Positions 1-62,394 of a stretch of DNA of 62,394 nucleotides are shown piece by piece. Positions within the stretch are counted from its first letter, which is position 1. Every line of letters begins with the position of its first letter. Below the pieces are notes generated by a model. The model searched no databases and was not told the DNA's origin. It saw nothing but the letters and a program-made list of their open reading frames with translations. Position numbers and translations under genes: made by a program. The DNA is from a virus, in IMG/VR virus record IMGVR_UViG_3300003375_000002, one strand, 5' to 3'.

Positions 1-130
1 AGCCGTCGCCGTAGCCGTAGCCGTAGCCGTCGCCGTTGCCGTAGCCGTAGCCGTTGCCGTAGCCGTAGCCGTTGCCGTAGCCGTCGCCGTTGCCGTAGCC
101 GTAGCCGTAGCCGTTGCCGTAGCCGTCGCC
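1..130. repeat. Tandem 6-nt coding repeat (units gccgta / gccgtc / gccgtt)
   Basis: Direct reading: uninterrupted hexanucleotide units from base 1 to about 130. The same repeat family occurs at 62262..62394. Confidence 0.95.
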
Positions 131-154
131 GACAGGCTTAAAATTTTCGCTCAT
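1..154 (-). CDS. Gly-X dipeptide-repeat protein, N-terminal part (runs off the window start; continues at 62394..62218 if circular)
   Basis: ATG at 154-152 overlaps the TGA of ORF 151..456 (ATGA). My translation is MSENFKPV followed by GDGYGNGYGYGYGNGDGYGN... Too short in-window to appear in the ORF track. Confidence 0.6.
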   Translation of the reverse strand, partial: MSENFKPVGDGYGNGYGYGYGNGDGYGNGYGYGNGYGYGNGDGYGYGYGDG

Positions 155-1580: not shown

Positions 1581-1859
1581 ATGAGCATCGAACTTAATTC
1601 GCTGGAACGCCGCACACGCGAGCTTTTCGAAAAAGCTGATAAGCCTTTCGGCGAGATGAATCACATCATGCTTTCAAAAGTTTTTGCCACGATGTGGGCG
1701 CACTCTCTTTCAATAAATCGGATAATTAAGATCGCCAAGGCAATTTACGACATTGATGGTCCGATCGATTTTGATCCTGCGCTCAAAAATCTTGTTAAGC
1801 AGAAAGTTCTGCGCACCAGAAAAGTGCAGAACGTCACCCTTTACGAAGTCAATTATTGA
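1581..1859 (+). CDS. Hypothetical protein (92 aa)
   Basis: In-frame ATG at 1581 preceded by GGAG. The ORF-track start at 1392 would lie in the AT-rich intergenic region. Confidence 0.6.
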   Translation: MSIELNSLERRTRELFEKADKPFGEMNHIMLSKVFATMWAHSLSINRIIKIAKAIYDIDGPIDFDPALKNLVKQKVLRTRKVQNVTLYEVNY

Positions 1860-1869
1860 GGAGCTCCGA

Positions 1870-2229
1870 ATGACTCGCATCAATCTCGTTCCGCCGGAAG
1901 AGCTCCACGACAAGCACCTGTTGGCCGAATACAGAGAACTGCCGCGCATCTTCCGACTGGCAAGGCGCGCGCCGGAGGCTCCTGAGGTTTACACGCTCGG
2001 GCGCGGGCATGTCATGTTTTTCTACGACAAGCTGGCATTCCTCGCGCAGCGTCAGCGCTCTCTGATCAATGAAATGATCCGGCGAGGCTTCCGGCCGCAA
2101 TTCACAAATATCGATGAATTGATGAATTCGTGCCCGGATGAATTCAAGGGCGATTACGTACCGACGCCTGCCGCCCTCGACCTCAACCGCGCGCGCATCC
2201 TCGCCCGTCAGCCTCAGGAGCGGAAATGA
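1870..2229 (+). CDS. denV: Pyrimidine-dimer DNA glycosylase (T4 endonuclease V family)
   Basis: [27 protein letters not shown]... and [15 protein letters not shown] closely match my memory of T4 DenV ([42 protein letters not shown]). Thr2, Arg3, Arg22, Glu23 and Arg26 are all present. Confidence 0.9.
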   Translation: [119 protein letters not shown]

Positions 2230-2636
2230 CCACTGTCAATTGCATTCCTCTCGAAGAGTTGACCGATCGTCAGCTCAAAGCCGAATATTACGAAATCCAG
2301 CGGGTTTTCAAATGGGTCAACGCGAGCCTGAAAAACGGCAAGCCGATGAAAATTCCTGAGACCTACAGTTTCGGCCCCGGTCATGCGAAATTTTTCTACG
2401 ACAAACTGCAATATTGTGCTGACAGGCTGATCGAAATAATCGACGAGCTGAAATTCAGAAAAATGCGCGTTCAACCGCTCGAACGATTGCCGACTGGCAT
2501 CCCGAAAAGGTTTTTCGGCCGATGGCAACCGACGTCCGCCGATCAGGAGCTGAACCGCGAATGGCTGGCCCGGCGCGCAGCTCTCCAGCCGGAGAAGCCC
2601 AAAAGGCCAGTTTTGACTCCCCGAAACTGGGACTGA
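2226..2636 (+). CDS. Divergent second endonuclease V-like paralogue
   Basis: MTTVNCIPLEELTDRQLKAEYYEIQRV and GPGHAKFFYDKLQY keep Thr2, Glu23 and Arg26 but replace Arg3 and Arg22. ATGA overlap with denV. Confidence 0.8.
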   Translation: MTTVNCIPLEELTDRQLKAEYYEIQRVFKWVNASLKNGKPMKIPETYSFGPGHAKFFYDKLQYCADRLIEIIDELKFRKMRVQPLERLPTGIPKRFFGRWQPTSADQELNREWLARRAALQPEKPKRPVLTPRNWD

Positions 2637-2739: not shown

Positions 2740-3306
2740 ATGAAGATTTACGCTTTCGACTTCAAAAACCTCACCATCACCGCTTATCCCACGGTCGCCG
2801 ATGCTCAGGCTGCCGGCAACGGACGCACCCTCGCCGCGAATGCCGACGACCTTATGAAGGCGCTGGTTTCGGGAGATCAGATGGTCAATCTCTACAACAA
2901 TTACGTCCCCGATTTCCCCATCAAGAAGTTCGAGACCAAGCTCAAGGGCGCCGAGCGCCTGATCCTTCTCGCTCAGTCGAAGGCGACTGAGGGGAAAACC
3001 GCCCCCAAGGAGGCTGAACCAGTGGCAAGCAAGACCAATCCTGAGTCTGTCAAGAAGTCCCCGACCAAGAAGGCCGAAGGCGAAGGCAAGCGCGGTCGCA
3101 CTTCCGAATTCGTCGGCAAGCGCATTTTCCCTGTCGAAGGGCTGGAGGGCAATCCCCGGCGCGAGGGAACTGGCGGATACAATTCGATGAGCATCATCAT
3201 CTCGGCCGGCAAGCGCGGCATCACCTTTGAGAATTTCATCGAAAAGGGTGGACGCGCGGTCGATCTGCGCTGGGACCTCGCCCACGGCAGCGTCATCGTC
3301 GAGTGA
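2740..3306 (+). CDS. Hypothetical protein (188 aa) with a Lys-rich central linker
   Basis: ORF track. AGGAG-type Shine-Dalgarno (caggagacacgagATG). Confidence 0.7.
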   Translation: MKIYAFDFKNLTITAYPTVADAQAAGNGRTLAANADDLMKALVSGDQMVNLYNNYVPDFPIKKFETKLKGAERLILLAQSKATEGKTAPKEAEPVASKTNPESVKKSPTKKAEGEGKRGRTSEFVGKRIFPVEGLEGNPRREGTGGYNSMSIIISAGKRGITFENFIEKGGRAVDLRWDLAHGSVIVE

Positions 3307-3317
3307 TGCAACAGCTT

Positions 3318-3338
3318 GGGGCCGGAATTTCCGGCCCC
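3318..3338 (+). terminator. GC-rich hairpin without U-tract (possible terminator or RNA stabiliser)
   Basis: ggggccggaa t ttccggcccc, a near-perfect palindrome 12 nt after the stop at 3306. Confidence 0.35.
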
Positions 3339-3376
3339 AGTCCGATGCACCATCCGCATCAAGATAGGAGATTCAA

Positions 3377-4042
3377 ATGGAAGAGAAAATCGAAATCAAA
3401 AAGCGCCTTACCGGCGAGGTAATTTTTTCCGCCAGCATTGATTGCGAACCCGGCGCGCTGCCATCTGTTAAATTAGGTTTGGCCGTTATGTTGGCTATTA
3501 AAAGCCGCGCGTACCTCAGCCGCGCGGACCTCAGTGGCGCGGACCTCAGTGGCGCGGACCTCAGTGGCGCGGACCTCAGCCGCGCGGACCTCAGTGGCGC
3601 GAACTTCAGTGGCGCGAACCTCAGTGGCGCGAACCTCAGCCGCGCGGACCTCAGTGGCGCGAACTTCAGTGGCGCGAACCTCAGTGGCGCGAACCTCAGT
3701 GGCGCGGACCTCAGTGGCGCGGACCTCAGCCGCGCGTACCTCAACGGCGCGAACCTCAGCGGCGCGGACCTCAGCCGCGCGAACCTCAGCCGCGCGAACC
3801 TCAGCCGCGCGAACCTCAGCAGCGCGAACCTCGTTGATGGTGGTCAAAGATCAGACGGTTATCGTTTTATTGGGTGGGTGAAAGATTCAATCCTTCAAAT
3901 TCTCGCAGGTTGTCGCGATTTTTCAATTATTGAAGCGCGCGCGCATTGGCTTGCCACGCGCGGGGGGACGCCGCTTGGCGATGAAACGATCTGTATTCTA
4001 GATCACATCGAAGCTGTTGCAAAGATTCGCAAACTTATCTGA
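3377..4042 (+). CDS. Pentapeptide-repeat protein with a conserved C-terminal domain
   Basis: About 22 consecutive A(D/N)(L/F)S(G/R) pentapeptides. The C-terminal ~65 aa is shared with ORF 10107..10820. Confidence 0.9.
3505..3832 (+). repeat. Tandem 15-nt coding repeat (pentapeptide array)
   Basis: Near-identical units such as gcgcggacctcagtg / gcgcgaacctcagtg, read directly. Confidence 0.95.
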
Positions 4043-4097
4043 AATAAATCGTCCTATCGATGATGTAATTTAAAATCCAAACGAAAAGGAACATAAA

Positions 4098-5057
4098 ATG
4101 TCGCACGAAGTTGAAACAATGGCCTACGCCAACGCAGTACCATGGCATGGTTTGGGCAACAAGGTCGACCCAAAAACGACCGTCGACGAAATGCTCGTCG
4201 CTGCTGGTCTTGATTGGCAGGTCAAGCTGCGTCCCCTTTTCGCCCAGACGGAAAACGGCGAAATGATCAAGCTGCCATTGCGGCGGGCGCTGGTCCGCAG
4301 TTCCGACAACAAGATCATGTCCGTCACTGGCGACATCTGGAAACCCTTCCAGAACAAGGACGCCATGGAATTCTTCCGCGACTACACTGAGGCCGGTGGC
4401 GCGCGGCTGGAGACAGCCGGCAGCCTTCATGGCGGAAAGTTGATCTGGGCTCTCGCCTCGATCAACGAGGGCTTTACCGTCAAGCGCACCGACCACACAA
4501 AAGGCTACATTCTGCTGACGTCGCCCCATGAAGTCGGCAAGGCCATCACTGTCCGCACCACGACAGTGCGCGTGGTCTGTGCCAACACGATGGCTATGGC
4601 CGTCAATGGATCTCAGGCGTCTTATTCGCAGAACCACCTGACGAAGTTCAACGCTGCCGCTGCCAAGGAGACCATCGTCCTCGCTCGCGCCCAAGTGCAT
4701 CAGGCGCACATCGATGCTCAGGCTCTGACTCAGCTGCAGCTAAGCGAATTCGACACTGTGCGTTTTCTGGCGCGCTTTTTTCAGCCTGCTCCTGAAGGCG
4801 TCAAGGAGGACGCCCATGCCGAAACCCTCCTCAATGTCCACAACGAGCGCTCCAAGGTCTTCGATGCCATTCTGAAGAGCGTCAACGATGCGCCGGGTGC
4901 CGATCCGGGCACAGGCTGGGGTGTGCTGAATGGCGTCACCCATTGGGCCGACCATGTCGCTGGCAACCAGTCTGCCGCCCGGCTCTACAACGCATGGCTG
5001 GGTGAGCGTGCCGCGACAAAGCTCAAGGTTCGAGATGCCTTGCTCCAGATGGTTTAA
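4098..5057 (+). CDS. DUF932-family phage/plasmid protein
   Basis: N-terminal MAYANAVPWHGLGN and later VVCANT motifs. Length and pattern match my memory of DUF932 (TIGR03299-like). Confidence 0.75.
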   Translation: MSHEVETMAYANAVPWHGLGNKVDPKTTVDEMLVAAGLDWQVKLRPLFAQTENGEMIKLPLRRALVRSSDNKIMSVTGDIWKPFQNKDAMEFFRDYTEAGGARLETAGSLHGGKLIWALASINEGFTVKRTDHTKGYILLTSPHEVGKAITVRTTTVRVVCANTMAMAVNGSQASYSQNHLTKFNAAAAKETIVLARAQVHQAHIDAQALTQLQLSEFDTVRFLARFFQPAPEGVKEDAHAETLLNVHNERSKVFDAILKSVNDAPGADPGTGWGVLNGVTHWADHVAGNQSAARLYNAWLGERAATKLKVRDALLQMV

Positions 5058-5073
5058 ACCTAAGCAATTGAAA

Positions 5074-5097
5074 GGCCGGAGAAATCCGGCCTTTTTC
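5074..5097 (+). terminator. Rho-independent terminator
   Basis: ggccgga gaaa tccggcc followed by ttttt. Confidence 0.8.
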
Positions 5098-7692: not shown

Positions 7693-8064
7693 ATGAAATT
7701 CAAGCGCGCCTTCCTTATGAATCCGAATTTCCGTTTTGAAACGGAAAAGATCCGGCAAGTCGCGGACGAGCTGATTTACGTCTGCGATACGCCAATGTTC
7801 GACAATTTGATCGGTCAGAACAATCGCCGCAGATTTGAAGACAAGATAGCTTCAGCGATGGCAGATTTCGATTTCGAAAATGACGTCATTGTCGTTTACG
7901 GAGATCCGATCATTATGGCGATTATGATAATGTTCGCTTGCATCATGCAATCGCCAACGGAAATTAAACCGATCAATATCGCACGCTGGTCGGCCAGCGA
8001 AGACAAATATCTTGTGCGTCAAATCTCGGAGGAATTTTTCCCCGAAGAAACTGTGGAGAGATGA
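7693..8064 (+). CDS. Hypothetical protein (123 aa)
   Basis: ORF track. Starts 2 nt after the previous stop. Confidence 0.6.
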   Translation: MKFKRAFLMNPNFRFETEKIRQVADELIYVCDTPMFDNLIGQNNRRRFEDKIASAMADFDFENDVIVVYGDPIIMAIMIMFACIMQSPTEIKPINIARWSASEDKYLVRQISEEFFPEETVER

Positions 8065-8065
8065 A

Positions 8066-8398
8066 ATGTCAGGACAGTATGAGAAAACAGCAAGAATTCA
8101 ATCTGGCGACTGGCAAGCTGCTGCAAAATCTGCTGAAAAGCCGAACAACAATGATGCTGAATTGCAGCGCGCTGCGGCTGCTCTGGCTGCGATCATGATG
8201 GTCATGACGCAAGGTGGAAGAACTGTCCCGAACACCAATGATGTTCGAGGCCTCGACATCATTCGTTCGACACTCAATCGCGTTCATGCTCAAGAGTTGC
8301 AGGGCGCATCCCCGACAGGTTTCACTGGCTCGGAGGATCAATTTAAAACGGAAACCGACCCAAAACTCGCCGCTGTTCGTGAGGCGCTGGAAATCTAA
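8066..8398 (+). CDS. Hypothetical protein (110 aa)
   Basis: In-frame ATG at 8066 with GGAGAG 6 nt upstream. The ORF-track start at 8012 overlaps the previous gene. Confidence 0.6.
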   Translation: MSGQYEKTARIQSGDWQAAAKSAEKPNNNDAELQRAAAALAAIMMVMTQGGRTVPNTNDVRGLDIIRSTLNRVHAQELQGASPTGFTGSEDQFKTETDPKLAAVREALEI

Positions 8399-8400
8399 CA

Positions 8401-8916
8401 ATGGCAATAATTTACCGAACTCCTGAAAATCTCGAAAAATTGCGCAAGATGGCAGCCGCCAAGGTGCCAACAATCGAGATCGCTAGGGAGTTCGGTTGTC
8501 GCCACAACACTGTCCGCGCTTGGGCACGTCAGATGAATATAAAATTGAATAGTCAGATGGATTCTTCAAAAGACCCCTCTGTCAAGAAAAATAGAACGGA
8601 AGGCATCATTGCAGCTTGGCGCCGTCCGGAAGTCCGCGCAAAGGTTAAAGCCTATTGGTCAAGCGAACAAGCCAAAATTCATCAGAAACTTGCTGCACTC
8701 GGTAAAAGGCGCAAATATCTCGCGCGCAAGGCGCAGCTGTCTGTACCCAGTTGGGTTCCGGAGCAGTTAAAACAAAAATACATCAATCGTGCCCACAAGA
8801 ATGGAGAGCTGGAAGCAGCCGCTTGGGCAAGAAAACAGAAGCAAAAAATGAATGTTTCTGGCACTCAAGAAAAGCGTAAAATTCAGTTTCAGCAGAAGGA
8901 GAATAACATTGAATAG
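8401..8916 (+). CDS. HTH-containing DNA-binding protein
   Basis: N-terminal VPTIEIAREFGCRHNTVRAWARQ is a helix-turn-helix-like segment. Confidence 0.6.
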   Translation: MAIIYRTPENLEKLRKMAAAKVPTIEIAREFGCRHNTVRAWARQMNIKLNSQMDSSKDPSVKKNRTEGIIAAWRRPEVRAKVKAYWSSEQAKIHQKLAALGKRRKYLARKAQLSVPSWVPEQLKQKYINRAHKNGELEAAAWARKQKQKMNVSGTQEKRKIQFQQKENNIE

Positions 8917-9526
8917 ATCGATCGTTGTCGGTGTTATTTGCGCCTTGAGTTCGAGCGCAGTCAGCTCTCTGGCTTGGGAGGGTGACGATATACCAGCATT
9001 GTTTTTTGCGCGGGATCGTGGACAGATCCCGAGGTCTGTTCAAATTCTGCAGCCTTATGGCAATCTCGACAGCTCTCGCACGCGCAATGCATTGCTCGTC
9101 GCTGAGGCGGTCCGCGCAAGGGTCGGAGAGCGTTGGGTTGCTTCCGCTCTGAAAATAACAAAGATCGAGAGCAACTACCGTTGCAACGCTGTAAACCGGA
9201 AATCCGGCGCAACAGGTCTAGGCCAATTGATGTTCTATTCCGCGAGGGCGCTTGAACCCGGCTCGGAATATCACAGAGACGACTGCGAAACAGGCGCGCG
9301 ATTGATCGCGCTGCATATGCAGGCCTGCCTTTCGGCAGGAGTCACTAATGAAGCAGAGATGGCGAAATGCCATGTTGCAGGAATTCGCGGATGGAATCAT
9401 CGCCTCGCGCGCTGGGCCGAACGATACAAAGCCTCGTATTCGCGCATGGTTTCTGGCGCACATCCAGTTCAACTCGCAGATGCCAGCGGATGGATCGTCC
9501 GTGGAACAATTTCAATATTTAGATAG
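8909..9526 (+). CDS. Exported lytic transglycosylase (SLT domain)
   Basis: TTG start at 8909 after GGAGAA. N-terminal hydrophobic segment IVVGVICALSSSAVSSLA. SLT signature IESNYRCNAV...SGATGLGQLM. Confidence 0.75.
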   Translation: MNRSIVVGVICALSSSAVSSLAWEGDDIPALFFARDRGQIPRSVQILQPYGNLDSSRTRNALLVAEAVRARVGERWVASALKITKIESNYRCNAVNRKSGATGLGQLMFYSARALEPGSEYHRDDCETGARLIALHMQACLSAGVTNEAEMAKCHVAGIRGWNHRLARWAERYKASYSRMVSGAHPVQLADASGWIVRGTISIFR

Positions 9527-9547
9527 AAGAAGTTAGATTGAAAAACA

Positions 9548-9895
9548 ATGAAAAAGCCAATTGAAATGGGAAAACAATATCGCACCGAGGACGGGCGCGA
9601 GGTCAGGATTTACGCGGTGGATGGCTACAAACCGTATCCCATTCATGGCGCAATAAAATTTAGCGATGGGTTTGGAACCGCATATTGGACAGAGCATGGC
9701 GAAAATGCCGCTACGCCAAATTACAGCCTCATCGAAATCAAGCCGAAGCGCAAGATCGAGTTCTGGGTGAATGTGTATCCAGATTGGGGGACTGAATGTC
9801 ATTCAACAAAAGCCGATGCCGACGGGTGCGCGGCTAGTAATCGTCTGGCATGCCTTCACTTCATCCGCGAGTACGAGGAAGGAGAAGGGCTATGA
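9548..9895 (+). CDS. Hypothetical protein (115 aa)
   Basis: ORF track. Confidence 0.6.
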   Translation: MKKPIEMGKQYRTEDGREVRIYAVDGYKPYPIHGAIKFSDGFGTAYWTEHGENAATPNYSLIEIKPKRKIEFWVNVYPDWGTECHSTKADADGCAASNRLACLHFIREYEEGEGL

Positions 9896-10110
9896 CCATC
9901 CGCGACCGCATAGCACGGGCGATAGCGCCATACGAGCTAGAGCCGACGCCGGAGACACTGGCGACCGCTGATCGCGTGATTGAGGCGTTGCGCGAGCCGG
10001 GCGAGGCGACGATTGAACGGATGTGGGAGCGTTTCGTGTTCTCACCAAGTCTGACGGCGATACAAACGAGATTGCGCGCCGCCTACGCGGCCATATGGAG
10101 CGAGAAATGA
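9892..10110 (+). CDS. Hypothetical protein (72 aa)
   Basis: ATG at 9892 overlaps the previous stop (ATGA). First gene of the GC-richer block. Confidence 0.6.
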   Translation: MTIRDRIARAIAPYELEPTPETLATADRVIEALREPGEATIERMWERFVFSPSLTAIQTRLRAAYAAIWSEK

Positions 10111-10820
10111 GCGAACAACGCAAATACGAATTTACCGGCGAAACCAAGGAATGGTGCGGCATCACGTTGCGCCAAATCCGCGCCGTTCGCGCGATTGGTT
10201 GGATCGCTGCCGGAACTGTTGGCGGCTGGATCGAAAGTGAAGAAAATCTCGATCAAGTTTCCGGCAATGCGTGGGTCTACGGCAATGCGTGGGTCTACGG
10301 CAATGCGTGCGTCTCCGGCAATGCGCAGGTCTCCGGCAATGCGTGGGTCTCCGGCAATGCGCGGGTCTACGGCAATGCGCAGGTCTCCGGCAATGCGTGG
10401 GTCTTCGGCAATGCGTGGGTCTACGGCAATGCGTGGGTCTACGGCGATGCGCGCGTCTACGGCGATGCGCGCGTCTCCGGCGATGCGTGGGTCTCCGGCA
10501 ATGCGCGGGTCTACGGCAATGCGCAGGTCTCCGGCAATGCGTGGGTCTTCGGCAATGCGTGGGTCTACGGCAATGCGCGGGTTGTGTCAAAAATTATCGT
10601 TGCAACGCGATCTGACGGCTACACGTTTTTACTAACCCCCGACAAAGACAATATTTTGCGGATTATCGCGGGTTGTCGGTATTTCGACATTGAACAAGCG
10701 CGCAAACATTGGCGCGAAACGCGCGGCGGAACGCAATTAGGCGACGAAAGCCTAGCGATTGTCGATCATTTGGAGCGCATGGCTAAGATTTGCGGGCTTA
10801 TAAATGGAGGCGACAAATGA
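10107..10820 (+). CDS. Hexapeptide-repeat (G-N/D-A-x-V-x) protein with the same C-terminal domain as 3377..4042
   Basis: About 18 consecutive hexapeptides (GNAWVY GNAWVY GNACVS GNAQVS ...). C-terminus is RSDGYTFLL...ILRIIAGCRYFDIEQARKHWRETRGGTQLGDESLAIVDHLERMAKICGLI. Confidence 0.85.
   Translation: MSEQRKYEFTGETKEWCGITLRQIRAVRAIGWIAAGTVGGWIESEENLDQVSGNAWVYGNAWVYGNACVSGNAQVSGNAWVSGNARVYGNAQVSGNAWVFGNAWVYGNAWVYGDARVYGDARVSGDAWVSGNARVYGNAQVSGNAWVFGNAWVYGNARVVSKIIVATRSDGYTFLLTPDKDNILRIIAGCRYFDIEQARKHWRETRGGTQLGDESLAIVDHLERMAKICGLINGGDK
10259..10582 (+). repeat. Tandem 18-nt coding repeat (hexapeptide array)
   Basis: Units such as tccggcaatgcgtgggtc / tacggcaatgcgtgggtc, read directly. Confidence 0.95.
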
Positions 10821-11376: not shown

Positions 11377-11591
11377 CCCGCCGCCCCGCCACGCGCCAGC
11401 AAGTCGCGCGCGCGATAGCCGCGATAGAGGCCATTGGCAAGCCGGTTGCCGCCGTGTCTGTCCACAAGGACGGGACAATCACGGTTCGCATAGGCGATCC
11501 GCTGGACAGGTCAACCGAGAGCCGCGACGATGCCGAATTTGAAAATATCATCGCCGGGGCGAAACATGGTCAGAATCGCCATGCGAATTAG
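11373..11591 (+). CDS. Hypothetical protein (72 aa) directly upstream of the integrase
   Basis: ORF track. ATGA overlap start. Confidence 0.55.
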   Translation: MTRRPATRQQVARAIAAIEAIGKPVAAVSVHKDGTITVRIGDPLDRSTESRDDAEFENIIAGAKHGQNRHAN

Positions 11592-12621
11592 GTATGTGCA
11601 AATCATCCGATCCAAGGGGATCGAGTTTGCCTATTACCGGCGCGACGGTCGCCGTGTGCCGATCAAGGCGCGTCCGATTGCGTCGCCAGCCTTTGCCGCC
11701 GAGGTTGAGGCAATCGAGAAAGCATGGAAAACGACGCCGATTCCCGCGCCCAAGAACACGGTTGGCGTTTTGATCGCGGCTTATAAGAAATCCCCGCGCT
11801 GGAATGAAATCAAGCCCGCGACCCGGGCAAGCTATGAGCGCGCCTTTGCTGCGCTTAAGCCATTGGAGAATTTCCCCGCCGCGTCGCTGGATCGCCCCAA
11901 GATTTTCCGCTTTCGGGATTCCGTGGTGTTCCCAAAAAATGGCCGATGGATGGCGAACTATGCCGTGACCGTTCTAGGGCTGCTGCTGGCCTTTGGCGTT
12001 GACGCTGGCATGGTCAAGGCCAACCCCCTTGCCGAGCCCGTCAGGAAGCTACGGAAGGCCAAGGGAAGCGCAAGGGCGAATAGGCCATGGACCGCCGAGG
12101 AACGCGCCGTGGTGCTCGCCGAGGCCCCTAACCATGTCTTACTGCCCTTGGCCCTGCTGATGACAACCGGGATGCGGAAGGCCGATGTGTTCAAGGCCAC
12201 GCTAGGCGCGATCAAGGACGGCATGATTTCCGTCAGGACCAGCAAGACAGATCAACTGGTTTCCCTGCCCGTTCACCCCGTTCTGGCGTCCGCGTTGGCG
12301 ACGCGCCCGACCGCCCGGAGCCTCCAAATCGCCCTGAACAGCGACAAGAAACCTTGGACGCCGGATGGTTTCGATACCGTATGGCATAGGTTCCGAGGCC
12401 GCTTGGAAGCCGAGGGCAAGGTTGCGCCCGGGCTGACCCTGCATGGCCTTCGCCACACTCTCGGGACGCTCTTGAAAGAAGCCGGGCTAGACGACGGCGC
12501 GATTGCGGACGTTCTAGGCCAATCATCAACCAGCATGGCCCGGCATTACAGCCGGGAGGCGCAACTATCGACGGACACGAAAGCCAAGGTCCGGGCGATC
12601 AATTTTGGAGGCGGCAAATGA
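11566..12621 (+). CDS. int: Tyrosine recombinase / phage integrase
   Basis: C-terminal catalytic region LHGLRHTLGTLL...MARHYS (R-H-R-Y type). Start chosen at ATG 11566 (GGGG 7 nt upstream); 11581 is also possible. Confidence 0.85.
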   Translation: MVRIAMRIRYVQIIRSKGIEFAYYRRDGRRVPIKARPIASPAFAAEVEAIEKAWKTTPIPAPKNTVGVLIAAYKKSPRWNEIKPATRASYERAFAALKPLENFPAASLDRPKIFRFRDSVVFPKNGRWMANYAVTVLGLLLAFGVDAGMVKANPLAEPVRKLRKAKGSARANRPWTAEERAVVLAEAPNHVLLPLALLMTTGMRKADVFKATLGAIKDGMISVRTSKTDQLVSLPVHPVLASALATRPTARSLQIALNSDKKPWTPDGFDTVWHRFRGRLEAEGKVAPGLTLHGLRHTLGTLLKEAGLDDGAIADVLGQSSTSMARHYSREAQLSTDTKAKVRAINFGGGK

Positions 12622-13546: not shown

Positions 13547-13757
13547 TTGATAGAGCACCGATAGAGCACCACCAACCGTCAGAAAGCCTTTAAAATTGGT
13601 CGGAGTGAGAGGATTCGAACCTCCGACCCCCTCGTCCCGAACGAGGGAACCGCGCGCGAAAACAGCGGTTTTATTGGCTTTTCGCGAATTGTGCGGTGCT
13701 CTAAAAGCGCGAACAGAACCGAAACGTGATCTCGTTAAAGCACCGATAGAGCACCCG
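13547..13757. other. att-like module 2: tRNA-Pro 3' fragment flanked by GATAGAGCACC repeats
   Basis: GATAGAGCACC at 13549-13559, 13560-13570 and 13745-13755. An inverted ggtgctcta sits at 13696-13704. The tRNA fragment is at 13597-13647. Confidence 0.55.
13597..13647 (-). other. 3' portion of a tRNA-Pro(CGG); not a complete tRNA
   Basis: The reverse complement reads CCTCG TTCGGGA CGAGG GGGTC GGAGG TTCGAAT CCTCT CACTCCG ACCA. No 5' acceptor strand. Confidence 0.8.
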
Positions 13758-54252: not shown

Positions 54253-57200
54253 TCAATCCTCCATATCGCCGATGTAACGCACTGCGGAGATTCGCAGCAT
54301 GCGGAAGCCCTTGGGCACAGTGCCCTTGAAAGCGTAGAGTGCCTTGCCCGGTCGGCCGCGCTCGACGATTTGTCGACCTAGCTTCTCGAACATGTAGCGA
54401 TCAACCTTCCCGAAAATTCTGTCTGTGTCGTCTGCTATTGTCAGATTTAGGCTCTGTGTTGGGCCAGTGAGAACCTTACCGTTGCGCTTGGCAATGTTGA
54501 CCTGCTCATTTTCGTCGCGCGGCTTGATCTGAGCGACAGTCGCGATCACCAATGCATCATAATCCTGATCCTTGCACTGGAGCTTGATCACATTGGTCGG
54601 AACGGTGAAAATGCTGCGCGCCTTCGGATCAGGCATCAGCCGGTCAACTGCATCCTGGATTGGCCAAAGACTATCAATTTCCGTCTGTGCATTTTTCATC
54701 ATCTTTTCCGCACGCGGCGGCAGCGGTTCGCCCCGCGCTCGCGAAGACATGATTGCGCTGACCATCTTGGGGCCGATGCCCTTCACATTCTGGATAGGAC
54801 CGATCAGCACTTTCTTCCCATTCCTGAAACCGGCTGTCCATTTGTCAGTCGACAATTCGGCATCAATCGGAACATAATCGAAACCCTCTGCCTTCATCTC
54901 GCGCAGAATTCGGATCTGCTTCTCCGGATCGTTCTCGTGAGTCAATGTGGCTGCAGCGAATTCGAATGGGTGATGCGCCTTCATGTATGCGCACCAATAG
55001 CTGATAATTCCATAAGCGACAGAATGACTGCGGTTGAACGCCCACGAGCCATAGGCGCAATTATGAACAACTATTCCATTCGCAAGAAAATTGTGATGTG
55101 GTGCCGGCATGTGAATGTCATATACATCTTCAAATCCATGCGGAACGATTGAAACTATTTTATCGCTAAAAATAGCTCTGCCTTTTTTCCAAGGATTTGG
55201 ATTGCTTTCAAGGGCTGCATGGAGTTTCTTGTGGCACTTTCTGCAAACTGCCATCAAATTGTCTATTCTATCATTGCTGTGGTCCATATCAATGTGGTGA
55301 GTCTCCTCATAAGGTGAAATGTGGCAATGCTGACAATTCTTGTAATTGGCTTTTAAATATCTTTTTCCCTCTGCGAGTGTCGGTATACCTTGCTTAATCT
55401 TATACCACCAATTGTGGCCTCCAGAGCCACTCTTTTTTGGAGATTTCCTTTTTGTCGGAATAGTGCCTGCATCGCTGACGACAGAATCTCCAACCTTAAG
55501 ATCTTGCAACGCAGAATAGGAAAGATCTGGCATCAAGAATTTGTGCTCTTTAGTGGCCTTGATTCTGTTTCCACTTTCTGTTGTAAGAAGATATGTCATC
55601 TTCTTGCCAGAATATGTCACCCCGAAATTTTCAAATGGTTTAAGAGACTCTCCATCGAACATCAATATTTTCTGCCTCTTTCTTTTGGCAGAATTTTTTT
55701 CTGTTGGACCGAGTCCTCCTCGATCGTAGAGTTGCTTAATGGTAAATTTTCTGTATCTTCCTTTTGATGGGAATGGATTTTCAATCTCCGTATCTCCAGA
55801 AAGACACAAATCGTCCCACACCTTTCCGCAAACTTCCGCTGGAACGCCCCGCTCAATCGCGCCTTTCTTGAATCTGTCTCCGTATTGGTCGAAATATTCC
55901 TTGCCTAAGCTCTTGCTCATCGCCTTGCGCAATGCGGTCACATCGTCCCAGCTGAGTCCGCCAATCTCGCGACTGACCTGCATTACCTGCTCTTGATAAG
56001 CGACAATTCCGAGTGTATTCTTCAAATAAGGCTCAAACAGCGGATGCGGATAAGTCAGCGGAGATTGACCGTTCTTGCGCTTGACCCATTCGTTGGTGCC
56101 GCCGCTGGCCATCGGCCCTGGACGGGCGAGGGCTGTGATGGCGATGATGTCTTCGAGGCTGCGGACCTTGACCTGATTGGTGATGGATTGAAGGGCTGCA
56201 CCCATGAACTGAAATATTCCGGAGAACTGACCCTTGTTCAAAACGTCGAAGGCTGCCTTGTCGTCCAGCGGAACACTCTCCAAATGATGCATCGGCAGAC
56301 CGGCCATCGTCAATGCATCCTCGAACACACTCAACTGCGTCAGCCCGAGCGCGTCAATTTTCAAAAGGTTGAGCTCTTCGGCATCCTTTTTGTCGCACAT
56401 GGTGGCGCCAGTGCGCGCGTCCACAGCCACATAATCCGTCACTGGGGTCTCAGTGATCACGATGCCGGCTGCATGCTGGCCGAAGTGACGCGGATGGCCC
56501 TCCATCCGCGCTGCGATCATGATCTCCGGATTTTTCTTGAGCAACTCTTGGCCGGATGGCGTTGTGTTCAGCGTGTCCTCAAGCGTCGACAGCGCGCGTG
56601 AGTCGCCGCCCGAGCGAACAATCAGCGAGTCGACGACCTTGTCGCACAGCCACTTCGGAACACCGAGTGCGGTTCCTGCCTCTTCAATGGCTGAACGCGG
56701 ACGGAACAGTGCAACTGTCCCGAGGCGCGCAATGTGATCGCGGCCATATTTATGCTCCATATATTCGAACACGAGATGGCGCTTCTGATCCGAGAAATCG
56801 ACGTCAATGTCTGGCAGATCGGAGCGAGTGATGTCAATGAACCGCTCGAAAAGCAGGTCATACTTCAGCGGATCGATGGTCGTGATGTCGAGCAGATAGC
56901 AAACAAGACTGCCGCAGCTGGAGCCGCGCGCCGGTCCGCAGATCATGCGCTGACGCGCCCAAGTCATCATGTCTGCGACGATGAAAAAATAATCCTCGAA
57001 CTTTTTCTCAGCTATGAGGTCCAACTCGCGCTTGAGTCGGTCGGCATAAACGGGGTCCGTCAGGTCGGTGCCAGTGCGAATGGCGCCATTCCGGCACATC
57101 TTCTCCAGCGTCAGGGGCTTTTCCGGGCTGAGGAGCGTCGCAGTCTTTAGTCTTGCGTTGCAAAGGGTCGCTACATGGTCAGCCGTGGTCCAGGATGCCG

Positions 57201-57843
57201 CAAGAATGTCCGGCGTGACGATTCCCCCACAGGCGATTTTCCAGGCCTCCTGCCCCATCAGGGATTGATCGTAGGTTTGGACCGAAGCGCCACGTCCGCA
57301 GAGCACCTCGTAGAAACCTTCATCCTCCAGCCGTAGGAACTTGTTGTCGCTGACAGCGACCAGCCGGTGGCCGCGCTTCAAGGCTTGATTGATGTAGCCT
57401 TTTGAACAGGCTGGCCCCAGCCCGACATAAATGTCATCCTGAACATCAAAATTTTCCAACAGCGACCGATGGCCGACGATCTTGATGACGCCTTCAGCGA
57501 TGACCGCCTGTTCATAGGTCAACAGCGGCTCATAACGGAATTGAGAAGTCGCGAGCTCGACGAGCTGATTGATAAATTTAACATCATCAATCGCCAGAAA
57601 TGTCCAATAGTCAATTGTCGGCTTCTTGGCGTGAATTGATTCAGTCACTGCCAGTTCAACGCCATAGAGCGGCTTGAGCCCGGCCTTTTTCGACAGCTTG
57701 GCCCATCGCGTCCAGCCGAATGTGCTGGCGCGGTCAGTTATCGGTGCATAGGTCGCGCCATTTTCGATCAGGCGCTCCATCGTCTCATCGATCATTCCTG
57801 CTGCCGCGCGGAAGCTGTAGCCGGTGCGTACGCGGAGGGTCAT
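54253..57843 (-). CDS. dnaE: DNA polymerase III alpha subunit (DnaE-type) interrupted by an intein
   Basis: N-terminal PHP-like region. Core motifs GPARGSSCGSLVCYLL, DIDVDF, KIDALGL, AFNRSHSVAY. Intein at residues 680-928. Confidence 0.9.
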   Translation of the reverse strand: MTLRVRTGYSFRAAAGMIDETMERLIENGATYAPITDRASTFGWTRWAKLSKKAGLKPLYGVELAVTESIHAKKPTIDYWTFLAIDDVKFINQLVELATSQFRYEPLLTYEQAVIAEGVIKIVGHRSLLENFDVQDDIYVGLGPACSKGYINQALKRGHRLVAVSDNKFLRLEDEGFYEVLCGRGASVQTYDQSLMGQEAWKIACGGIVTPDILAASWTTADHVATLCNARLKTATLLSPEKPLTLEKMCRNGAIRTGTDLTDPVYADRLKRELDLIAEKKFEDYFFIVADMMTWARQRMICGPARGSSCGSLVCYLLDITTIDPLKYDLLFERFIDITRSDLPDIDVDFSDQKRHLVFEYMEHKYGRDHIARLGTVALFRPRSAIEEAGTALGVPKWLCDKVVDSLIVRSGGDSRALSTLEDTLNTTPSGQELLKKNPEIMIAARMEGHPRHFGQHAAGIVITETPVTDYVAVDARTGATMCDKKDAEELNLLKIDALGLTQLSVFEDALTMAGLPMHHLESVPLDDKAAFDVLNKGQFSGIFQFMGAALQSITNQVKVRSLEDIIAITALARPGPMASGGTNEWVKRKNGQSPLTYPHPLFEPYLKNTLGIVAYQEQVMQVSREIGGLSWDDVTALRKAMSKSLGKEYFDQYGDRFKKGAIERGVPAEVCGKVWDDLCLSGDTEIENPFPSKGRYRKFTIKQLYDRGGLGPTEKNSAKRKRQKILMFDGESLKPFENFGVTYSGKKMTYLLTTESGNRIKATKEHKFLMPDLSYSALQDLKVGDSVVSDAGTIPTKRKSPKKSGSGGHNWWYKIKQGIPTLAEGKRYLKANYKNCQHCHISPYEETHHIDMDHSNDRIDNLMAVCRKCHKKLHAALESNPNPWKKGRAIFSDKIVSIVPHGFEDVYDIHMPAPHHNFLANGIVVHNCAYGSWAFNRSHSVAYGIISYWCAYMKAHHPFEFAAATLTHENDPEKQIRILREMKAEGFDYVPIDAELSTDKWTAGFRNGKKVLIGPIQNVKGIGPKMVSAIMSSRARGEPLPPRAEKMMKNAQTEIDSLWPIQDAVDRLMPDPKARSIFTVPTNVIKLQCKDQDYDALVIATVAQIKPRDENEQVNIAKRNGKVLTGPTQSLNLTIADDTDRIFGKVDRYMFEKLGRQIVERGRPGKALYAFKGTVPKGFRMLRISAVRYIGDMED
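55060..55806 (-). mobile_element. Class-1 intein (249 aa) with an HNH endonuclease insert
   Basis: Starts CLSGDTEI. Block B is ATKEH. HNH motif is CQHCH...HHIDMDHSNDRIDNLMAVCRKCHKKLH. Ends GIVVHN followed by +1 Cys (CAYGSWAFNRSH). The segment is markedly AT-rich. Confidence 0.9.
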
Positions 57844-62217: not shown

Positions 62218-62394
62218 TCAAAAAATTCTTCGCATTCTGTTTGACGAAATTGTTCCTTGACCGTAGCCGTAGCCGTAGCCGTAGCCGTAGCCGTAGCCGT
62301 AGCCGTAGCCGTTGCCGTCGCCGTAGCCGTCGCCGTAGCCGTTGCCGTTGCCGTCGCCGTAGCCGTCGCCGTAGCCGTAGCCGTAGCCGTCGCC
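62218..62394 (-). CDS. Gly-X dipeptide-repeat protein, C-terminal part (enters from the window end)
   Basis: My translation: GDGYGYGYGDGYGDGNGNGYGDGYGDGNGYGYGYGYGYGYGYGYGQGTISSNRMRRIF then TGA at 62220-62218. Confidence 0.6.
   Translation of the reverse strand, partial: GDGYGYGYGDGYGDGNGNGYGDGYGDGNGYGYGYGYGYGYGYGYGQGTISSNRMRRIF
62262..62394. repeat. Tandem 6-nt coding repeat, same family as 1..130
   Basis: Direct reading. The last 34 nt equal the first 34 nt of the window. Confidence 0.95.

Follow-up and report, generated by a model that had tools for sequence, protein, structure and literature searches.

A phage protein domain outside the annotated families, joined to at least five classes of rapidly changing repeat rod

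The pentapeptide-repeat proteins MfpA, Qnr and AlbG are head-to-head dimers joined through their C-terminal helices, and the surface of MfpA is electrostatically DNA-like (PMC8145042; PMC10886550). Qnr needs two surface loops, A and B, that project from the helix, and the number of coils is 8 in PENT, the MfpA homologue of C. botulinum, and about 8-9 in AlbG (PMC8145042). In phages, the terminal-repeat early region of a P100-like Listeria phage contains a pentapeptide gene (PMC12282133), and Staphylococcus phages evolved for host range had recurrent mutations in another such gene (PMC8065394); with respect to the family described below, both genes are leads only. Here we analyse IMG/VR virus record IMGVR_UViG_3300003375_000002, a stretch of 62,394 nucleotides that we refer to as the window, in which two genes, gene 1 (3377..4042) and gene 2 (10107..10820), encode proteins whose rods are built from different repeats and whose C-termini carry the same domain.

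Both proteins belong to a family with a common plan, in which a short N-terminal cap is followed by a beta-solenoid rod of in-frame tandem repeats, and the C-terminus is an invariant domain, about 65 residues long, that stacks on the last coil of the rod. The solenoids themselves are known; what is new is the shared, unannotated domain, the size of its family, the presence of at least five repeat classes in front of it, and the rapid turnover of the repeats throughout the family. The features of the two genes are as follows.

3377..4042, plus strand: gene 1, pentapeptide-repeat rod and shared C-terminal domain (open reading frame (ORF) of 221 residues)
3377..3505, plus strand: N-terminal cap, residues 1-43, beta-hairpin and helix (AlphaFold model, shared motif)
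3506..3835, plus strand: 22 pentapeptide units of 15 nucleotides each, about 5.5 coils of quadrilateral beta-helix (Tandem Repeats Finder, register reading, PF00805, model)
3833..4039, plus strand: C-terminal domain copy 1, residues 153-221, four strands then two helices (domain model)
10107..10820, plus strand: gene 2, YdcK-type hexapeptide rod and the same C-terminal domain (ORF of 237 residues)
10260..10583, plus strand: 18 hexapeptide units of 18 nucleotides each, (S/Y/F)G(N/D)AxV (Tandem Repeats Finder, register reading)
10584..10817, plus strand: C-terminal domain copy 2, residues 160-237 (BLASTP against copy 1, profile match)

Aligned by BLASTP, the C-termini of the two proteins are 58% identical over 67 residues (E 4e-22), somewhat above the "about half" that the initial annotation had estimated by eye when it proposed that they share a domain, and both match a profile built from 69 domain sequences (E 2e-34 for gene 1 and 4e-35 for gene 2). 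A scan of all six frames of the window with this profile returned no third copy. The conserved residues lie in three blocks, RSDGYxF, AGCRxF and AxxHWxxTRGGTxLGxE. In the 69-sequence alignment R9, D11, A28, C30, H41 and E54 are invariant, and S10, G12, Y13, F15, G29, R31, A38, W42, T45, R46, T49, L51 and G52 nearly so; 11 of these 19 positions are polar, and the domain as a whole is close to neutral (median net charge +1). An AlphaFold model computed from the same alignment was predicted with high confidence (predicted local distance difference test (pLDDT) 97.4, predicted template-modelling score (pTM) 0.86) and consists of four strands (3-8, 14-20, 23-28 and 31-34) followed by two helices (35-46 and 50-68).

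The domain, of about 65-70 residues, is undescribed in every library that we searched. Pfam gave no match for the window copy and three weak matches to DUF7196 (best E 0.005) among the 69 members, no NCBIfam family matched the domain, and none of the 69 sequences matched PHROGs. Neither full protein matched PADLOC, in which the sole listing (E 0.05) was for the domain alone. A profile search of the PDB sequences gave eL39 (E 0.12) and a BMP receptor (E 1.3) as its best hits, both by chance, and a Foldseek search of PDB folds with the domain model found nothing at E<=0.001, the best template-modelling score (TM-score) being 0.42. Our literature searches returned no paper on the domain or on phage YdcK-like proteins. 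The succession of strand, helix, Gly-x-Thr loop and helix had raised the idea of a ribbon-helix-helix protein, from topology only; no such family or structure was matched, and the idea was discarded.

The predicted viral structures of BFVD gave a different kind of match, in that the domain resembles the C-terminal ends of other phage solenoid proteins. Relatives close in sequence, at 26-54% identity, align with TM-scores of 0.71-0.83, and distant matches, at 11-23% identity, with TM-scores of 0.64-0.79. The distant proteins include pentapeptide, hexapeptide, "polymer-forming cytoskeletal" and YdcK-like types and come from sources such as the Bacillus phages phiAGATE and Bp8p-T and Listeria phage LMTA-57; a weaker match was found in Aeromonas phage PX29 (TM-score 0.54). 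The matches in these four named phages share the fold at 12-20% identity.

An exhaustive HMMER search of 1.84 billion cluster representatives returned 1,466 proteins at E<=1e-3 and 495 at E<=1e-10, a family of about 1,470 clusters as counted at 50% identity, and these clusters come almost entirely from viromes and metagenomes. The best 150 proteins have lengths of 71-246 residues, and nearly all of them carry the domain at the C-terminus or very close to it; among the first 111 hits the number of residues after it is 0-10 in every case (111/111). The repeats that precede it are of several classes: pentapeptide repeats, YdcK-type GNAxVx hexapeptides, GGTIx pentads (L029, L030, P0151), Cys-Ser-Asn or Cys-Thr-x triplets (L010, L020, P0107, P0235), and classical isoleucine-patch hexapeptides (P0052, P0154). 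Two proteins, P0042 and P0048, keep the N-terminal cap and have no repeats. The initial annotation had described the window genes as a modular two-member family; the modularity is borne out, while "two-member" falls well short of a domain found behind at least five repeat classes.

Only one stand-alone domain gene could be verified, P0029, with 69 residues in a stop-to-stop frame of 75 residues. Two other apparent stand-alone genes proved to be gene-calling artefacts: P0016, called at 78 residues, is an ORF of 182 residues, and P0056, called at 65 residues, is one of 188. P0029 (L041 1137..3210) lies directly after a gene for a 613-residue protein of the N6-methyltransferase/Eco57I type and near an IS1595 transposase gene. 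The members with triplet repeats, among them L010 from Thalassobius sp. Cn5-15, carry these repeats in place of the solenoid, in 9-nucleotide arrays of up to 23 copies, and in L010, L020, P0107 and P0235 a conserved N-terminus, MTTWI.DENGNR..VE.FGSEEAAR.A, stands before the Cys triplets.

Members are plentiful in viromes and scarce in cells. A search of 185,579 species, each represented by one genome, found the motif TRGGTPLGD in 13 stretches, of which 4 were confirmed as relatives, and in IMG/VR the same motif led to 27 confirmed loci. Three cultured or deposited phage records match and no more, namely EBPR siphovirus 2, Caulobacter phage GB2A and a spring-water metagenomic phage. The GB2A protein gp015 (WNV48047.1, annotated as "pentapeptide repeat family protein") is the only member that we found in a cultured phage, and it has the same order of cap, rod and domain (profile E 6e-19); its RSDGY and AGCR blocks are kept, while the HW..TRGGT..LGDE block has diverged.

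Near-identical relatives differ in repeat number, the gap between close relatives being 1 to 20 repeats. Among 19 protein pairs whose N- and C-terminal flanks are 80-100% identical, the two lengths are 4-100 residues apart, and the gap is a multiple of 5 in 17 of the 19. The series P0010, P0007, P0005, P0011 and P0124 runs from 113 to 143 residues, P0193 and P0208 differ by 70 residues, and between P0227 and P0238 the domain is placed 100 residues further in. Over the whole family, rods of anything from 0 to more than 40 repeats occur. In about 30 of 37 loci, Tandem Repeats Finder placed an array immediately upstream of the domain, with a period of 9, 15 or 18 and units that are 75-100% identical to one another. 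The recent expansion and length variability that the initial annotation had read from the near-perfect repeats of gene 1 therefore hold family-wide.

These arrays also leave their mark on the public records. Since 12 contigs end inside an array, assemblers evidently break there; one has a masked run at this place. The real ORF has spurious rivals in other frames and on the opposite strand, and because of this competition gene calls are truncated at the arrays. Public calls cut family genes short at the array in L005 (5689..6237) and L042 (1681..2247), and in the GenBank record of Acidovorax phage AP1 a wrong-strand ORF, UIS65439.1, is annotated across the array.

Gene 1 is preceded by a ribosome-binding site, AGGAG at 3366-3370, 7 nucleotides 5' of the ATG. 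Its cap carries a motif, I(K/R)NRfTG..F.A.i....LGLAV, that is common to many family members. Tandem Repeats Finder delimited the array at 3503..3832, with a period of 15, 22.0 copies and 90% matches; read in register, residues 44-153 form 22 contiguous units of (G/R)A(D/N/Y)(L/F)S, in agreement with the approximately 22 consecutive pentapeptides from near-identical 15-nucleotide units that had been counted at the outset. Variation is confined to 5 of the 15 nucleotide positions of the unit: Ala is encoded by GCG in all 22 units and Leu by CTC in all 20 Leu units, and two TTC codons encode Phe. A second period, of 60 nucleotides and 5.4 copies, was also detected, and the sequence at 3581-3640 recurs at 3641-3700 as a duplication of four pentapeptides, or one coil. 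That this higher-order period corresponds to one coil is consistent with the prediction of a quadrilateral beta-helix.

Pentapeptide-repeat proteins are recognised by at least 8 contiguous pentapeptides matching A(D/N)LXX together with a score above the Pfam cut-off; gene 1 has such a run and scores 145 bits against PF00805 (E 3e-43, cut-off 20.2). The full-length AlphaFold model of the monomer (pLDDT 95.7, pTM 0.88) shows a cap with strands at 2-9 and 15-22 and a helix at 29-42, a solenoid with a beta-bridge every 5 residues from residue 50 to 146, and a first domain strand, 153-157, that continues the last coil and so joins rod and domain. The best Foldseek match of the rod was Np275/276 (2j8k, E 8e-10, 55% identity), and the designed Beta1 solenoids and Rfr32 (2f3l, root-mean-square deviation (rmsd) 0.8 A over 95 columns) were also among the top matches; the rod superposes on 2g0y with an rmsd of 0.8 A. 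QnrB1, AhQnr, MfpA and AlbG align structurally as well but trail, with E values of 3e-6 to 8e-4 at 20-29% identity. The right-handed quadrilateral beta-helix postulated in the initial annotation is thus confidently predicted and matches solved pentapeptide structures, and the model supports a rod of the "ideal consensus" kind rather than of the Qnr kind. Np275/Np276, Rfr32, HetL and the designed Beta1 proteins all have the near-ideal A(D/N)LSG consensus, as gene 1 does. The HetL and Alr5209 models were the top NCBIfam matches for gene 1, yet it stays below the cut-offs of these families; the cyanobacterial consensus pentapeptide proteins, moreover, are cellular and are without the C-terminal domain.

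For gene 2, a GGAG precedes ATG 10107, which we take as the start in preference to GTG 10023 because homologues begin M..KYEFTGETK. Tandem Repeats Finder placed its array at 10262..10582 (17.8 copies, 89% matches). Given that the protein passes the Pfam model of the YdcK beta-solenoid, PF18836 (E 2e-26, 90 bits, cut-off 30), but falls below the cut-off of the NCBIfam model YdcK_fam (84.6 bits, cut-off 350), we regard it as having the YdcK repeat type without being a YdcK orthologue. Both phrog_5070 and phrog_7964 match its N-terminal part and rod. A match to phrog_20532 seems to be borne by the repeats, as the isolated domains do not match that family. With the YdcK/bactofilin-like phage solenoids (PF18836, phrog_5070, phrog_7964) gene 2 shares the N-terminal module KYEFTGE...GGWIE and the GNAxVx rod; E. 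coli YdcK is without the family's C-terminal domain. A YdcK-type repeat gene of Acidovorax phage AP1 (OM049504.1, L040 3675..4553) is 89% identical in DNA to the gene 2 array, but its product ends in a different C-terminus (GPAKSSGRFT...CGCF...EF...TH), which forms its own family of at least 65 clusters. As a candidate homologue of our domain this C-terminus gave an hhalign probability of 6-16%, which is not significant, and the shared Gly-Cys turn is a lead only.

The window is a phage genome, with virion proteins and a DnaE-type polymerase on the minus strand. Judged by sequence, the phage is distantly related, at no more than 38% identity, to known Proteobacteria phages, and a comparison of the window with 50,697 phage records gave nothing closely related to it apart from matches to the repeat array and to a tRNA fragment. 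That fragment, the 36 nucleotides at 13597-13632, is 97% identical to the tRNA-Pro gene of Ralstonia phage RSL1. A tyrosine integrase is encoded at 11530-12621, and the phage is probably temperate. The DnaE-type polymerase, of 1,196 residues within 54253..57843, bears an HNH-like insertion.

On the 5' side of gene 1 lie two denV-like genes and then an ORF of 188 residues at 2740-3306 that we could assign to nothing known; on its 3' side are a TIGR03299/DUF932 gene at 4098-5057 and an SNF2 helicase. The denV-like genes (1753..2636, plus strand) are adjacent paralogues, and both match phrog_1183, the family of T4 endonuclease V (denV, pyrimidine-dimer glycosylase). Terminator-like hairpins at 2644-2665 and 5070-5095 flank three genes, from 2740 to 5057, of which gene 1 is one; in a scan for promoters and terminators the site counts were no higher than in shuffled sequence. 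A further GC-rich hairpin, GGGGCCGGAATTTCCGGCCCC, is found at 3319-3339, just 5' of gene 1. A third tandem-repeat gene, on the minus strand, spans the two ends of the window (1..154 and 62221..62394) with hexamer arrays of about 22 copies each: its reading frame begins at ATG 154 (MSENFKPVGDGYGNGYGYG...), leaves the window at the left end and finishes at the right end (...GYGYGYGQGTISSNRMRRIF, with the stop near 62220). Probably, therefore, the contig is circular or permuted and was broken inside this Gly-(Tyr/Asn/Asp) repeat gene.

Elsewhere, family members sit among small early genes in L001-L003 and in Caulobacter phage GB2A, where gp015 adjoins the terminal repeat. One member lies beside a repressor/Cro region (L005), and another near a Tad2-like gene and a sliding-clamp gene (L007). 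In L006, a 38.5-kilobase metagenomic phage contig, the near-identical copies P0079 and P0081 flank a gene for DpdA (7-deazaguanine DNA modification) at 8001..9664. When the neighbouring ORFs were compared by all-against-all BLAST and clustered, no partner gene save the family itself recurred in more than 3 of the 37 loci, from which we conclude that the gene is not part of a multi-gene system.

The initial annotation had labelled gene 1 as of the DNA-mimic type, pointed to gyrase binding by Qnr, MfpA and AlbG, and named anti-restriction or anti-defence mimicry and topoisomerase modulation as candidate roles. A DNA-mimicking pentapeptide protein would bind gyrase in the same way, or else a restriction or defence enzyme, and the predicted quadrilateral beta-helix, its structural alignment with these proteins, a ladder of five stacked Asp on one rod face (units 1, 5, 9, 13 and 17) and the position of gene 1 in the early region are all in keeping with such a role. 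The protein, however, is near neutral by sequence composition (net charge -1, isoelectric point 6.1, with 10 Asp against 8 Arg in the rod), as is the family (median net charge 0, range -25 to +19). It scores 53.1 bits against the Qnr model NF033086 (cut-off 240), 35-71 bits against all Qnr subfamily models (cut-offs 425-500) and 37.4 bits against the MfpA model NF000349 (cut-off 360); the 22 units run uninterrupted, without Qnr-type loops A and B; and the rod has about 5.5 coils against the 8 of PENT and the 8-9 of AlbG. Where the mimics have a single C-terminal dimerisation helix, gene 1 has a 65-residue alpha/beta domain, and its paralogue is a hexapeptide solenoid, with other relatives carrying other repeats or none. 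A rod of interchangeable type and of 0 to more than 40 repeats is, moreover, a poor fit to the fixed dimensions of a DNA-like rod. We therefore consider DNA mimicry very improbable, and the label is not supported. Ocr, ArdA and Gp5.9 are likewise small proteins from stand-alone early genes of mobile elements; they are strongly acidic and of unrelated folds, and the near-neutral gene 1 protein is unlike them in charge.

Our tentative proposal is that the family members are early phage accessory proteins in which a fast-evolving rod carries the C-terminal domain and this domain does the work, and which may interfere with the host or its defences. We read the domain as the functional head because it is the sole conserved element, survives without a rod and has a dense set of invariant polar residues, and the rod as its carrier because it is the fastest-changing element; the early accessory position, the lack of a partner gene and the restriction to phages together make a role in host interference the most likely one in our judgement. 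The domain would then bind one conserved target or ligand, possibly through its invariant Arg, Asp, Cys, His and Glu residues, and the rod would be a tolerant, rigid carrier acting as spacer, steric bumper or oligomerisation scaffold. Whole repeats would be gained or lost by slippage and unequal recombination within the array, with the fold unharmed, so that the kind and length of the rod could drift fast, and the stand-alone early genes would act on a host process or a defence early in infection. Several points weigh against this proposal. The invariant polar residues could be a buried network of salt bridges and hydrogen bonds that stabilises a small cap; the same fold on the ends of distant phage solenoids fits a general structural role as a cap; the position in the early region is weak evidence for interference; the integrase of the window phage would allow expression from a prophage for another purpose; and, as noted above, just one true stand-alone domain gene was verified, two further apparent ones being artefacts.

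The main competitor takes up the first two of these points and makes the domain a portable end-cap, perhaps a dimerisation module, that prevents the solenoid ends from aggregating, with the function residing in the rod surface (binding, polymer formation or a decoy). Solved pentapeptide proteins are indeed capped and dimerise through C-terminal helices (PMC8145042; PMC10886550), and a cap would account for the way the first strand continues the last coil in the model, for the shared fold at the C-terminus of distant phage solenoids and for the conserved positions on both helices, which are spaced i, i+3/4, i+7 as core-facing residues are. Against this, rod type and length are the least conserved features, rod-less versions retain an intact domain, and 11 near-invariant polar residues in 65 positions exceed what a simple cap usually needs, so that we think this explanation unlikely. 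More speculative, and to our minds decidedly unlikely, is that the domain has a new fold and serves as a phage module for counter-defence or host takeover, for example as a ligand- or metal-dependent binder that uses the invariant Arg, Asp, Cys, His and Glu residues, with the array acting as a phage "contingency locus": slippage would yield rods of varied length and lineages would swap rod types, so that a warhead might be held at varied reach or hidden from host recognition. Expression from a prophage to protect the lysogen, by superinfection exclusion or as a defence, would suit the integrase next to a tRNA-like site, the three-gene cassette between two terminator-like hairpins and the member that adjoins a repressor gene (L005). 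It is nevertheless improbable, since there was no PADLOC match, members occur in phages without an integrase in the stretches examined (GB2A, with its terminal repeats, and the podovirus-like contig L001), and the family is rare in bacterial genomes. Hardly credible, finally, is a reading in which the arrays matter as DNA, for example as iterons bound by a protein or as hot spots of recombination, or have expanded neutrally, and in which it is incidental that they encode a rod. Arrays are homogenised at the DNA level family-wide, and the same genome holds a third tandem-repeat gene; yet every period is a multiple of 3 and keeps the frame of the domain, the units correspond to recognised solenoid motifs of proteins, and the array sequences are wholly different between classes, which argues against one shared DNA-binding function.

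A compact and confidently predicted domain thus lies outside all the libraries searched, yet is represented by about 1,470 protein clusters in environmental phages. That one domain is joined to at least five unrelated repeat types, with very fast expansion and contraction, is an unusual evolutionary pattern, and the family amounts to a natural experiment on how far beta-solenoids tolerate the gain and loss of coils. In practice, phage pentapeptide proteins should not be labelled "Qnr-like" or linked to quinolone resistance without a check of the family cut-offs, and arrays of this kind should be expected to break assemblies and to mislead gene callers into wrong-strand or truncated calls, as in Acidovorax phage AP1, P0016 and P0056. 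If the domain is a module for host interference, gp015 of GB2A would offer a testable member in a cultured system in which its target might be found.

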